In this document: piece by piece, positions 1-4,436 of the stretch
Position numbering within the stretch: the stretch's first letter is position 1
Layout of the letters: each line of letters opens with the position of its first letter
IMG/VR virus record: IMGVR_UViG_2534681835_000035
Length of the DNA: 9,885 nucleotides
Reading direction: 5' to 3' (one strand)
Origin: a virus
Taxonomy: Duplodnaviria > Heunggongvirae > Uroviricota > Caudoviricetes
Notes under the pieces: generated by a model
Seen by the model: only the letters and a program-made list of their open reading frames with translations
What the model was told of the DNA's origin: nothing
Databases searched by the model: none
Position numbers and translations under genes: made by a program

Positions 1-348
1 GCCTGCGGCAACGGCTTTCCGGCTGATGGTCGTACGGACCTTTTTACCCCGGAGAACACCGGCAAGTCCCATAACCGCCATGAGACGTGCCACTGTACAT
101 CTGGCCACCCTGATTCCTTCCCGTAACAACTGACGCCAGACTTTACGCACACCGTACACCTGATGATTTTCATCGTATACGCGCTGTATCTCTCTCTTCA
201 GCCAGTCGTCGTGCTGCGCACGGGCACTGCGTTTATCCGGATGATGTCGCTGTTGCTGACAATGGTAATACGTTGACGGGGCAATATGCAGTTCGCTGCA
301 TACCGGTCCGACCCCGTACTGCTCACGCAGCTTATCCAGCAGTGGCAT
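1..348 (-). CDS. IS3-family transposase OrfB (DDE catalytic subunit), N-terminal part only; 3' end outside window
   Basis: The ATG at 348..346 overlaps the orfA stop (ATGA). Translation [16 protein letters not shown]... continues to position 1 as ...GVLRGKKVRTTISRKAVAAG with no stop, in the -1 frame relative to orfA as expected for IS3-family OrfAB frameshifting. Confidence 0.85.
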   Translation of the reverse strand, partial: MPLLDKLREQYGVGPVCSELHIAPSTYYHCQQQRHHPDKRSARAQHDDWLKREIQRVYDENHQVYGVRKVWRQLLREGIRVARCTVARLMAVMGLAGVLRGKKVRTTISRKAVAAG

Positions 349-674
349 CATTTTTTCCAGAGGCGGTCGAACTCCGCCTTCGCAAAATAAGCGGAAGCCT
401 GGCGAAGGATATCGTTACTGCGGCGCAGTTCACGATTTTCACGTTCCAGCTCTTTCAGACGCTGACGTTCAGCGCTGGTGAGCCCACCATCACCGCCCCC
501 GGTATCCCGCTCATGCTGGCGAACCCAGACACGCAGAGTCTCCGGCGTACAGCCAATCTTTGGGGCAATGGAACAAATTGCCGCCCACTGTGAGTCATAT
601 TCATCCTGACTTTCCAGAACCATACGAATCGCCCGCTGACGGACTTCGGGGGAAAAACGAGTATTTTTAGTCAT
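348..674 (-). CDS. IS3-family transposase OrfA (HTH and leucine-zipper subunit)
   Basis: 108-aa [60 protein letters not shown]...[36 protein letters not shown], recognised as IS629/IS1203-type OrfA. An A-rich slippery run (CTG GAA AAA ATG A) sits at its 3' end, overlapping the orfB ATG. Confidence 0.9.
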
Positions 675-699: not shown

Positions 700-1155
700 T
701 TAGTCTCCAGGATTTCCGGGGCGGTTCAGTTCAGCCATTTTGCGCTTAGTCATCCCCCGCCCCACATAACGCTGACTCAGAACATTGAGCAGCCCGGGAT
801 AACCTGCCAGTACTTCACCAATAACCCTGTCGATTATTAACGCCTCTGAATCGGTACAATGTGCCAGCCAGCTTTTTTGATTGCCGTTGATCATATCCCG
901 CAAAAAAGCCTCAAGTTCAGGTTTGTCCAGACCCGCTTTTTTCATCCTCCGGAGCGCCTCGTTAATTGCCGTTTTTGTCAGCTTTTTAGAGGTCAGTAAT
1001 TGGTTGAACATATTTCCCGTCTTACCGTCGCCAATATACGACCAACGCCCCCACATACGCAGTTTCCCCTGGATCCAGACACTTTCCAGCGTTTTCAGGC
1101 GTAAATGCTCACCGCTTTTGCCTGTAATTTCCGGGTATATCATATTTATGCTCAC
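700..1155 (-). CDS. Putative late-gene antiterminator (Q-like), 3' end disrupted by the IS insertion (last ~9 codons and the stop are IS-derived)
   Basis: 151-aa ORF directly downstream of rusA with an ATGA start/stop overlap, which is the position Q occupies in lambdoid phages. The reading frame crosses the IS terminus at 728/729, so the tail ...LNRPGNPGD and the stop are encoded by the IS inverted repeat. The Q assignment is by position and loose resemblance only, not by a recognised motif. Confidence 0.5.
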
Positions 1156-2921: not shown

Positions 2922-2950
2922 ACAAACAGAAAACCCGTCAGTAAGACGGG
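2922..2950 (-). terminator. Rho-independent terminator downstream of the YgiW-like gene
   Basis: On the minus strand a CCCGTC-TTACT-GACGGG hairpin (plus 2934..2950) is followed by TTTTCTGTTTGT, about 20 nt after the TAA stop at 2969. Confidence 0.55.
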
Positions 2951-2968
2951 CTTAACAAGCAGGGGCGG

Positions 2969-3313
2969 TTACTTTAATAATTTCAGTGCCTTTACATCAA
3001 CTTCAACACTGCTCAGGTCTTTATCAATTTCACCCTCAATTCTTACTTTGTCTTTCGGAGAAACATTCTGCCCGGCCCATACGCTGTCATCAATATCCGT
3101 GACAATTGTCCCGCTATTGTCACGAAACTCATAACGTTCATCACCCACTTTTTTAACGATGCTCCCTTCAAGGATAACCCATGCATCATCCTTCAGTTCT
3201 TTTGCCTGCGCTACTGTTGAACGCTCTGCTTCTGGCCCCTGGAAACCACCCTGCTGTGCAAAAGCGCCAAAAGACACACCGGAAATAAGTGCTGCAATCA
3301 ATACCTTTTTCAT
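2969..3313 (-). CDS. YgiW/YdeI (BOF) family periplasmic OB-fold protein with signal peptide
   Basis: 114 aa, MKKVLIAALISGVSFGAFA-QQGGFQGP..., with a signal peptide and AFA-QQ cleavage site, and the family pattern GGFQGP...W..L.G.IV......Y.F.D.SGTI..DID...W.G..V.PKD.V.I.GE.DKD..SVE.DVK. AGAGGA Shine-Dalgarno 7 nt before the ATG. Confidence 0.85.
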   Translation of the reverse strand: MKKVLIAALISGVSFGAFAQQGGFQGPEAERSTVAQAKELKDDAWVILEGSIVKKVGDERYEFRDNSGTIVTDIDDSVWAGQNVSPKDKVRIEGEIDKDLSSVEVDVKALKLLK

Positions 3314-3432
3314 TCATAGTCCTCTTTCAGAGATGAACATTCAAACAGCATTTTCAGTATGGTAAAGCGCGGGTGCGTTGAGGATGCCTGACACATCAGA
3401 GGTGGCGGGAGATTACTCCCCCGCCTGGTCTC

Positions 3433-3588
3433 TTACTTCTCAGATTCGTAGTCTACGAAGACAGCGACCTCCGTCTGACCGGTTCGGATTCGCACCTCGC
3501 AGAGGTCTTTCCTCGTTACCAGTGCCGTCACTATGACGGTTAAACAGATGACGATCAGGGCGATTAACATCGCCTTTTGCTGCTTCAT
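3433..3588 (-). CDS. hokD: Hok/Gef-family type I toxin (HokD/RelF-like small membrane peptide)
   Basis: 51 aa, MKQQKAMLIALIVICLTVIVTALVTRKDLCEVRIRTGQTEVAVFVDYESEK, near-identical to my recollection of RelF/HokD and carrying the Hok signature (LT/VTRK.LCE..IR.G..EVA.F..YES). AAGGAG Shine-Dalgarno 9 nt upstream of ATG 3588. The ORF track extends the same frame to an upstream ATG at 3645. Confidence 0.85.
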   Translation of the reverse strand: MKQQKAMLIALIVICLTVIVTALVTRKDLCEVRIRTGQTEVAVFVDYESEK

Positions 3589-3878
3589 AGCCTGCTTCTC
3601 CTTGCCTTTCGGCACGTAAGAGGCTAACCTACATGTGTTCAGCATGGATTGAGCCTCAGATTAATGTTAAGCGTCTTGCAGGACGCGTAATGTTAACTGG
3701 GGCTTTTCTCTATCTGCCGTTGGTGTTCATGCCCGAGGCAGATAGCCTCAAGCACCCGCTGCAATTCTACTTAACTATCCTTTTCCCGCAAACCGTTTTT
3801 ATCCCCAGCGGCAAATCGAATACTCCACCAGCGCCACCGCCATCGCAATTCCTACCGTTGTGAATGCTTCAGGCCAGG
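3589..3878 (-). promoter_or_regulatory. Long hok leader: candidate promoter, upstream in-frame mok-like start, and likely site of an antisense Sok-like RNA on the plus strand
   Basis: 290 bp separate the upstream gene from hok. Candidate minus-strand promoter TTGCGG-N16-TAGAAT (plus 3791..3764). Stable inverted repeats in the leader (TATCTGCC 3711..3718 with GGCAGATA 3737..3744; GCGTC 3671..3675 with GACGC 3682..3686) and an imperfect hairpin just 3' of hok (3404..3425). By analogy with hok/sok loci, an antisense RNA would be transcribed rightward from about 3600..3700, but its ends are not determined. Confidence 0.35.
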
Positions 3879-4436
3879 TCATTGATTCACCTCCTGCGGC
3901 GGTTCTGGTAGCGACATCCAGTGGGTTGCTTGCCTAAGATCATTACCCGGACTAACTGCTATACCTCCGCGCCGGAACGTGCCTCCGAGATAGCGTGCGG
4001 AATATATTAATGGCCCAGCCTCGCTATCGATATTCATCGAAATAAGCACGTTCTGGCTCTTTTCAGGCATTCGCTCAGTACAGCTTATCCAGCCATCCAG
4101 AGTTATCGGAGATCTGGTTGACGTTTCCGAGATTTCCCGAAAATTGTTGGTTGACGAATTCTTATTTTCCCGAAAGTTTCCGGCCTGAAGCATGGCGACG
4201 CGGCAGGCGTTCCAGCCATCAGCATATGTTTTAGTTACACCGTCGAGATGGCAGGTAAGCAAATCCATTTCATCAGGCACTACCATTGCTATCGGCTCTG
4301 CTTCCAGTGATGCCAGCGCGATACGAAACACATTAGCCAGCAGGCTGTCTGAAGACTTGTTATCGTGCGCCGAGTCGCTCAGGAAGCCTGTGATGTATGA
4401 TTTAATCTCCGCGCGTTCTCTGGTAATAGTGCTCAT
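3879..4436 (-). CDS. DUF551-domain prophage protein
   Basis: 185 aa; C-terminal GWISCTERMPEKSQNVLI...YSARYLGG...THWMSLPEPP matches the DUF551 signature as I recall it (W...ERLPE ... THWMPLPEPP). AAGGA Shine-Dalgarno 9 nt upstream; start is 1 nt from the preceding gene's stop. Confidence 0.8.
   Translation of the reverse strand: MSTITRERAEIKSYITGFLSDSAHDNKSSDSLLANVFRIALASLEAEPIAMVVPDEMDLLTCHLDGVTKTYADGWNACRVAMLQAGNFRENKNSSTNNFREISETSTRSPITLDGWISCTERMPEKSQNVLISMNIDSEAGPLIYSARYLGGTFRRGGIAVSPGNDLRQATHWMSLPEPPQEVNQ

Follow-up and report, generated by a model that had tools for sequence, protein, structure and literature searches.

The hok-like locus of the virus record IMGVR_UViG_2534681835_000035 (Caudoviricetes), examined here within a stretch of 9,885 nucleotides (the window, to which all positions refer), is with little doubt a type I toxin-antitoxin module of the hok/mok/sok family, intact and of the hokW/mokW/sokW type, that forms a moron-like cassette within the early region, on the PR side, of an Escherichia coli O111 lambdoid prophage. 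Modules of this type are already known from Shiga toxin-type lambdoid prophages, in which they were annotated in 1999 and experimentally tested in 2021. An earlier reading of these letters without database searches (the original prediction) had described a HokD-like toxin gene with a long structured leader; its individual claims are taken up below beside the results that bear on them.

Identity of the module

The 521 bases around the hok locus have 100% identity to E. coli O111:H-/H8 prophages, and the entire window is a single 100% piece of NZ_CP077465.1, an O111:H8 strain; related copies are found in 4731 of 5426 complete E. coli genomes. The best phage matches are Shiga toxin (Stx)-converting phages (96.7-96.9%), including phage 933W (96.7%), and the VT2-Sakai/Sp5 record matches the window as closely as 933W does (96.7%). 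In the matching stretch, the 933W record (AF125520) annotates mokW (213 nt), hokW (156 nt) and a "SokW antisense RNA" (71 nt), and its mokW and hokW have a common stop codon and are thus in frame. Pairwise alignment of the window with 933W finds just three substitutions across 3330..3800: one (3760) just upstream of the +1 position, one (3680) in the Sok/sokT hairpin loop and one (3425) at the base of the 3′ hairpin. None lies inside the open reading frame (ORF), which is identical for both mok and hok, or inside either promoter (without differences over 3791..3764 and 3602..3630), the 5′ tail of Sok, or the two mRNA elements tac (translational activator) and fbi (fold-back inhibition). The order of genes is also the same in 933W/Sp5: a DUF551-type gene, the hok module and a gene of the YgiW/BOF family. 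Upstream of ~3800 the two sequences diverge, with ~12 differences in 80 nt and a 17-nt insertion or deletion at the end of the DUF551 gene. Because identity drops so sharply just before the hok promoter, the hok cassette resembles a conserved module that has a mosaic boundary, and the hok/sok cassette seems to travel as a unit.

The toxin gene occupies 3433..3588 on the minus strand and encodes a 51-aa protein, MKQQKAMLIALIVICLTVIVTALVTRKDLCEVRIRTGQTEVAVFVDYESEK, identical to the product of 933W hokW. This protein matches the full 42-position profile of Pfam PF01848 (HOK_GEF) with E=4.3e-23 and 81 bits (cut-off 22), and RefSeq names it "Hok/Gef family protein" (WP_000813258.1). The original prediction was correct in seeing a Hok peptide behind a strong Shine-Dalgarno (SD) sequence: GGAG lies at 3598..3601 (minus strand), 9 nt before the hok ATG, where it overlaps the -35 element of the sok promoter on the other strand, and the surrounding AAGGAGAAG is kept in nearly all of the hok loci aligned. 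The description as HokD-like was apt in that the protein is 92% identical to HokD, but its precise identity is HokW. Further upstream, the ORF list gives a mok frame of 70 codons (3433..3645, minus strand) that is identical to 933W mokW, is in frame with hok and shares its stop codon, as expected from the in-frame ATG that had been pointed out at 3645. The mok ATG is preceded at 8 nt by its own SD sequence, GAGG (3654..3657, minus strand), within a GAGGC that is conserved across hok leaders, and from this ATG the frame reads through the hok SD and the hok ATG. The 70-aa product falls into PHROG 251, "MokW-like host killing" (E=2.7e-32).

A short plus-strand antisense RNA, which had been placed around 3600..3700, is likewise accounted for. 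Gap-free alignment with the sokW misc_RNA of AF125520 puts a 71-nt SokW RNA at 3637..3707 on the plus strand, composed of a 14-nt single-stranded 5′ tail, a long hairpin and a terminal UUUU; the tail is complementary to the mok start region, and the RNA folds at -30 kcal/mol (z=-5.0). By homology, the sok promoter consists of a -35 element TTGCCT (3602..3607, plus strand), a 17-nt spacer and a -10 element TAACCT (3625..3630); it falls below the threshold of a consensus scan, and TTGCCT-N17-TAACCT is positionally homologous to the TTGCGC-N17-TATCCT of R1-type loci. The oligonucleotides of the published study on the Sp5 allele can be located in the same way. Primer YO-421, used for a promoter-less sokW mutant that no longer acted as an antitoxin, replaces TAGGTTA, the complement of the assigned sok -10 element, and both Northern probes match the window exactly, at 3637..3666 (YO-592, for sokW) and at 3600..3629 (PMC8621323). 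A plus-strand ORF of 76 aa at 3633..3863 was considered as a gene and rejected, as its ATG lies upstream of the Sok +1 position and it mirrors the hok leader.

The Sp5 allele has been characterized experimentally. Takada et al. [quoted passage not shown] The same study detected hokW mRNA as well as sokW RNA on Northern blots of uninduced Sp5 lysogens, found that mitomycin C treatment is followed, in a manner that depends on RecA, by the loss of SokW and the appearance of HokW, and found that deletion of the locus halves phage release (PMC8621323). One detail of the published constructs can be read against the window: the primer arms used to make hokW-3FLAG (YO-560 and YO-561; PMC8621323) end at the last hok codon and at the GCACCC of fbi (the homologue of 3377..3432 in the window). 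The tagged hokW-3FLAG consequently has neither the 3′ hairpin nor the distal half of fbi, and the timing published for HokW-3FLAG synthesis may have arisen under mRNA control that was not fully native.

Predicted fold of the hok mRNA and its covariation

The hok mRNA that the original prediction envisaged is recognised by a covariance model. Rfam RF01794 matches the hok-sense strand from 3757 to 3583 (model positions 1-157) with 113.5 bits (gathering score 59; E=7e-26); other loci score 118 (K-12 hokC), 113.5 (933W) and 87 bits (an R1-type locus). This family is named "sok" (antitoxin), yet it matches the hok-sense strand, opposite the annotated sokC of K-12 (where its match spans 502..654 in our hokC locus, L003) and the annotated sokW of 933W; it therefore models the leader of the hok mRNA, and its strand must be inverted to place Sok.

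The leader begins with GGGUGCUUGAGGC, as in hokC; this 5′ end resembles the GGCGCUUGAGGC of R1 and is homologous in 933W. A start at ~3757 means that the true leader is 169 nt long (~3757 to 3589), not the 290 nt proposed earlier. The figure of 290 bp does hold for the distance from the DUF551 stop (3879) to the hok ATG, and the rest of that gap contains the hok promoter and a 27-aa ORF. The predicted hok promoter, on the minus strand, has a -35 element TTGCGG (3791..3786), a 16-nt spacer and a -10 element TAGAAT (3769..3764) that would lie 6 nt before the +1 position at ~3757; this TAGAAT aligns with TATAAT in K-12 hokC and with TATGAT in the R1-type locus. At a minimum, the full-length mok-hok mRNA would extend on the minus strand from GGGUGCUUGAGGC at 3757 to fbi at 3371 (3371..3757), as judged from the Rfam match, the minimum free energy (MFE) fold and an alignment with 35 other hok loci that spans the full length of the mRNA.

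The MFE fold of the 418-nt transcript 3340..3757 has z=-5.8 relative to shuffles, and the stable inverted repeats reported upstream of hok are thus real, with both the mRNA and the antisense RNA folding far better than shuffled sequences. In this fold, nucleotides 1-12 of the mRNA, which form tac (GGGUGCUUGAGG; 3746..3757, minus strand), pair with fbi (CCUCAACGCACCC; 3371..3383, minus strand), which starts 50 nt after the hok stop, and the 5′ end is thereby closed on the 3′ end. A second pairing joins the ucb, or anti-SD, element AGCCCC (nucleotides 54-59; 3699..3704, minus strand) to the mok SD, which is sequestered in the full-length fold: specifically, the GCCCC at nucleotides 55-59 pairs with the GAGG at nucleotides 101-104 through C56-G104, C57-G103 and C59-G101. 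The ucb column is nearly invariant in the alignment, and the homologous A70-C75 of R1 has been termed the mok anti-SD (PMC9841398). Just after the hok stop lies a 3′ untranslated region (UTR) hairpin, GGCGGGGGA-GUAA-UCUCCCGCC (3404..3425, minus strand), which had been noticed in the original prediction and is present in the folds of both the full-length and the truncated RNA; by homology with R1, it would be the terminal hairpin of the processed, active mRNA. The features named earlier are thus in place within the range 3404-3878 given for them, but fbi falls outside that range.

Comparative evidence for these pairings comes from 80 hok loci gathered from species-representative genomes of Escherichia, Shigella, Kluyvera, Photorhabdus, Pantoea, Citrobacter, Mixta, Sodalis, Erwinia, Buttiauxella, Dryocola, Leclercia, Enterobacter and other genera. 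RNAduplex runs over long upstream and downstream windows were uninformative, as whole windows zipped together, and were replaced by a search of the 3′ UTR with the 14-nt tac sequence and by tests on a plain, unfitted MAFFT alignment of 36 full-length loci from ~10 genera. In nearly all intact loci the best partner of the first 14 nt is found 45-57 nt past the hok stop, and the two halves vary in concert, as GGGUGC/GCACCC, GGGCGC/GCGCCC, GGCGC/GCGCC and UCUGGAUC/GAUCCAUGA. RNAalifold predicts the helix between the 5′ and 3′ ends de novo, with one pair (4:447) being CG in 17 of the 36 loci and UA in 16. Across the 12-pair tac/fbi helix, 83.6% of cells are paired, compared with 25-60% when the partner is slid, and the 27 compensatory cells were reached by none of 500 shuffles. 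Compensatory changes also occur in the first leader hairpin and in the post-stop hairpin (RNAalifold helix 372-379/394-401), one pair of which is AU in 15 loci and GC in 14. A cross-locus control was weakly discriminating: tac paired with the 3′ UTR of its own locus has a mean of -20.4 kcal/mol versus -17.7 kcal/mol across loci, and its own 3′ UTR is the best partner in 15 of 63 cases; the tac classes share most positions.

These data also bear on the scenario that the original prediction had set against itself, in which there is no antisense transcript and no conserved fold, hok is simply the next early-operon cistron after DUF551 without a promoter or regulation of its own, and the inverted repeats are incidental. 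In its favor, hok has the same orientation as the operon, and a consensus scan of 3250..3950 gives no terminator-like site between DUF551 and hok and no promoter. However, the covariance model and the family alignment both begin sharply at 3757, with a conserved -10 element just upstream, and the covarying helix that joins the 5′ end to the 3′ UTR makes sense only for an RNA with a defined 5′ end. Furthermore, hokW mRNA and sokW RNA are present in Sp5 lysogens prior to induction, at a stage of early-operon repression (PMC8621323). The RF01794 match, the folds, the covariation and the Sp5 Northern blots together contradict this scenario, to which we give almost no credence; read-through during induction, in addition to transcription from the hok promoter, is likely.

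Reading frame of mok

The ATG codons of mok and hok are 57 nt apart in this locus, which places the two genes in the same frame. In plasmid R1 the AUG of mok occupies nucleotides 116-118 and that of hok 174-176, so that they are 58 nt apart and in different frames (PMC9841398); the frame was derived from this nucleotide numbering and confirmed on a locus identical to R1 (L066). The locus therefore does not have the R1-type arrangement, in which the offset is not a multiple of 3, and the original prediction had called its in-frame mok unusual. The departure from R1 stands, but the arrangement is far from rare. Among 64 distinct leader sequences from Enterobacterales, 7 are truncated like that of hokD and 57 are intact; 56 of the intact leaders have a homologous mok ATG 56-60 nt upstream of hok. 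The mok frame is the same as that of hok in 33 of them, +1 (the R1 type) in 16 and +2 in 7, with one leader having no ATG at the mok position. In the +2 class, mok has 19 codons and stops at the TGA within the hok ATGA. An offset of 57 nt occurs even in an IncFII plasmid locus that encodes the same Hok as R1, K-12 mokC/hokC is annotated in frame like the 933W pair, and of the 120 nearest proteins in the database most are entered at a length of 70 aa. An in-frame mok is the commonest state in the hok family, and the offset separates sub-types within that family and leaves membership in it unaffected.

It is informative to ask, in light of this survey, whether the real toxin is the 70-aa protein started at 3645, with the internal ATG at 3588 not a separate start. 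The prevalence of 70-aa entries in the databases fits such a view, as do the separate GAGG of the ATG at 3645 and the fact that in-frame loci force mok ribosomes through hok. On the other side, database lengths are biased by the preference of gene callers for the longest ORF, and RefSeq annotates the 51-aa form here. Likewise, the 51-aa HokW sufficed for toxicity in the Sp5 work, in which primer YO-357 starts at ATGAAGCAG (PMC8621323); the strong GGAG and the ATG of hok are conserved in all loci aligned; and in R1 the Mok product is dispensable, with the translation of mok up to the hok start being what matters (PMC9841398). Because the mok frame varies across the family (in frame, +1, or ending in the hok ATGA), an N-terminal extension cannot be required for toxicity. 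We consider it improbable that the toxin is the longer protein.

Relatives, prophage setting and working model

Comparison with named relatives places the locus more exactly. With the parB locus of plasmid R1 it shares tac, ucb, the mok SD and ATG, the hok SD, hok, the 3′ hairpin and fbi; in both, sok promoter and hok SD overlap, Sok has complementarity to the start of mok and RF01794 matches, and tac/fbi covaries between the two. In contrast, Hok identity to R1 is only ~45%, R1 has its mok in another frame, its first leader hairpin is longer and its sokT hairpin shorter than those found here, and R1 is a plasmid setting, not a prophage. In K-12 hokC (gef)/mokC/sokC, mokC is in frame with a common stop, tac is also GGGUGCUUGAGGC and Hok is 80% identical; this locus differs in having a leader of 150 nt compared with 169 nt here, a position in the chromosomal backbone instead of a prophage, and IS186 directly downstream, with the normal fbi missing. 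The fbi position of K-12 hokC is taken by sequence adjacent to IS186, and its tac has its best partner elsewhere, at a displaced site. Among named K-12 proteins, HokD (relF) of the Qin prophage is the closest, at the 92% identity given above, and its neighbourhood is homologous, with DUF968/ydfU downstream and with the 3′ UTR and fbi retained. Unlike the present locus, hokD shows homology only from the hok SD onward: relBE replaces the leader, and hokD is thereby without tac, ucb, the mok start and sok, including the sok promoter. The contrast drawn earlier of a complete module with an orphan hokD is therefore upheld, and the two K-12 loci, hokC and hokD (L005, which has an fbi without a tac partner), are crippled in two different ways.

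Given such examples, it is worth considering that the O111 copy might itself be a decayed, non-functional relic, like the chromosomal loci of K-12, with its toxin never expressed or the whole module inert. Many chromosomal hok loci are inactivated, as hokC and hokD show; the host prophage is damaged by IS1203; and the locus has no terminator after fbi. Yet every element of the module is intact, the tac/fbi and SD/ucb pairings are preserved, and the sequence matches the active 933W/Sp5 allele over 3330..3800 apart from the three substitutions, all outside the ORF, the promoters and the Sok tail. Furthermore, 933W is equally terminator-less, and activity is seen with the Sp5 allele, whose match to the window is 96.7%, as for 933W. 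A relic is thus very improbable.

Several observations nonetheless weigh against an intact and working module. First, function in this O111 copy would follow from that of the Sp5 allele, and since the DUF1133 gene is truncated by IS1203, the induction-linked role seen with Sp5 may not apply here; the host here is an insertion sequence (IS)-damaged O111 prophage, whereas Sp5 and 933W are inducible Stx2 phages. Second, the consensus scan for promoters and terminators across 3250..3950 found no site, leaving the hok and sok promoters and a hok terminator undetected; this result is uninformative rather than negative, given the weak hexamers in both promoters and an internal mismatch in the stem of the Sok terminator, and both promoters are putative assignments made by homology. 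Third, the MFE fold of the 3′-truncated RNA showed no switch to the tac/ucb form of R1: in the RNA cut at 3398, the SD/ucb pairing is kept and the 5′ end is self-folded, with tac on nucleotides 19-29, an arrangement that resembles the known metastable hairpin. Finally, there is no intrinsic terminator on the minus strand between fbi and the next gene (3314..3371). The first terminator-like site on this strand is at 2953..2931, beyond the BOF/YgiW-family gene (2969..3313), whereas a terminator comes right after fbi in R1, where it forms a hairpin, in K-12 hokD and in many chromosomal copies. The 3′ end of the hok transcript, and hence the processing step, is uncertain as a result, and hok transcripts of the 933W type may extend into the BOF gene.

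The genes from ~8950 to 700 all lie on the minus strand and form a lambdoid prophage early operon, within which hok is sense-oriented. Their order is regulator, YdaT, replication genes, DUF551, hok, BOF/YgiW-family gene, DUF968, RusA and DUF1133. The 27-aa ORF in the gap between DUF551 and hok (3799..3882, minus strand) encodes a hydrophobic peptide, MTWPEAFTTVGIAMAVALVEYSICRWG; its start overlaps the DUF551 stop as ATGA, and it ends just before the hok -35 element. It is open in 933W despite ~7 amino-acid changes, is absent from the RefSeq annotation and has no PHROG match. At the other end of the operon, an IS3-family IS1203 transposase gene (1..674, minus strand), with an ALIL frameshift pseudoknot at 277..393, stands beside the DUF1133 gene (709..1143, minus strand), which the IS1203 copy truncates and which RefSeq records as a truncated pseudogene; downstream of the hok region, the prophage is probably defective. 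In 933W, outside the region homologous to the window, Rfam sRNA-Xcc1 matches with 69 bits (gathering 53) near the attR end (L001, 447..535).

Taken with what is established for R1 and Sp5, the intact module that we favor would operate as follows. A weak promoter would start the hok mRNA at ~3757, and the full-length RNA is predicted, with support from covariation, to be closed by tac and fbi, with the mok SD paired to AGCCCC, so that neither frame is translated. Slow trimming from the 3′ end would then remove fbi and allow a refolding that exposes the mok start, a step drawn from R1 that the MFE fold did not reproduce. Ribosomes entering at the mok ATG would move into the hok initiation region and thereby allow synthesis of the 51-aa membrane toxin; with mok in frame, the same ribosomes could also make a 70-aa extended Hok, here and at the other in-frame loci. 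As long as it is made, the short-lived 71-nt SokW, from a stronger promoter overlapping the hok SD, would pair over the mok start, block it and mark the duplex for RNase III, a step that was demonstrated with the Sp5 allele and presumably holds for this copy. Loss of Sok, for example upon prophage induction, would lead to HokW being made and the inner membrane being damaged, as occurs with Sp5.

The module is sense-oriented in the early operon, its mok is in frame and no terminators flank it, and for these reasons the prophage version might work differently from R1. Specifically, antiterminated transcription of the early operon after induction could silence the head-on sok promoter, and a 70-aa HokW isoform could have a timing or activity of its own. 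We think this rather unlikely; if true, silencing of the sok promoter would explain the rapid RecA-dependent loss of SokW.

Beyond correct annotation, the importance of these observations is small. RefSeq here labels just the 51-aa coding sequence and omits mok, Sok and the regulatory RNA elements, and the coordinates given above complete the annotation of the O111 prophage copies. For loci of the 933W type, in which no terminator follows fbi, the 3′ end that the processing model needs is undefined. More generally, the free variation of the mok frame across the hok family fits the published view that it is the act of translating mok that matters, not the Mok product.

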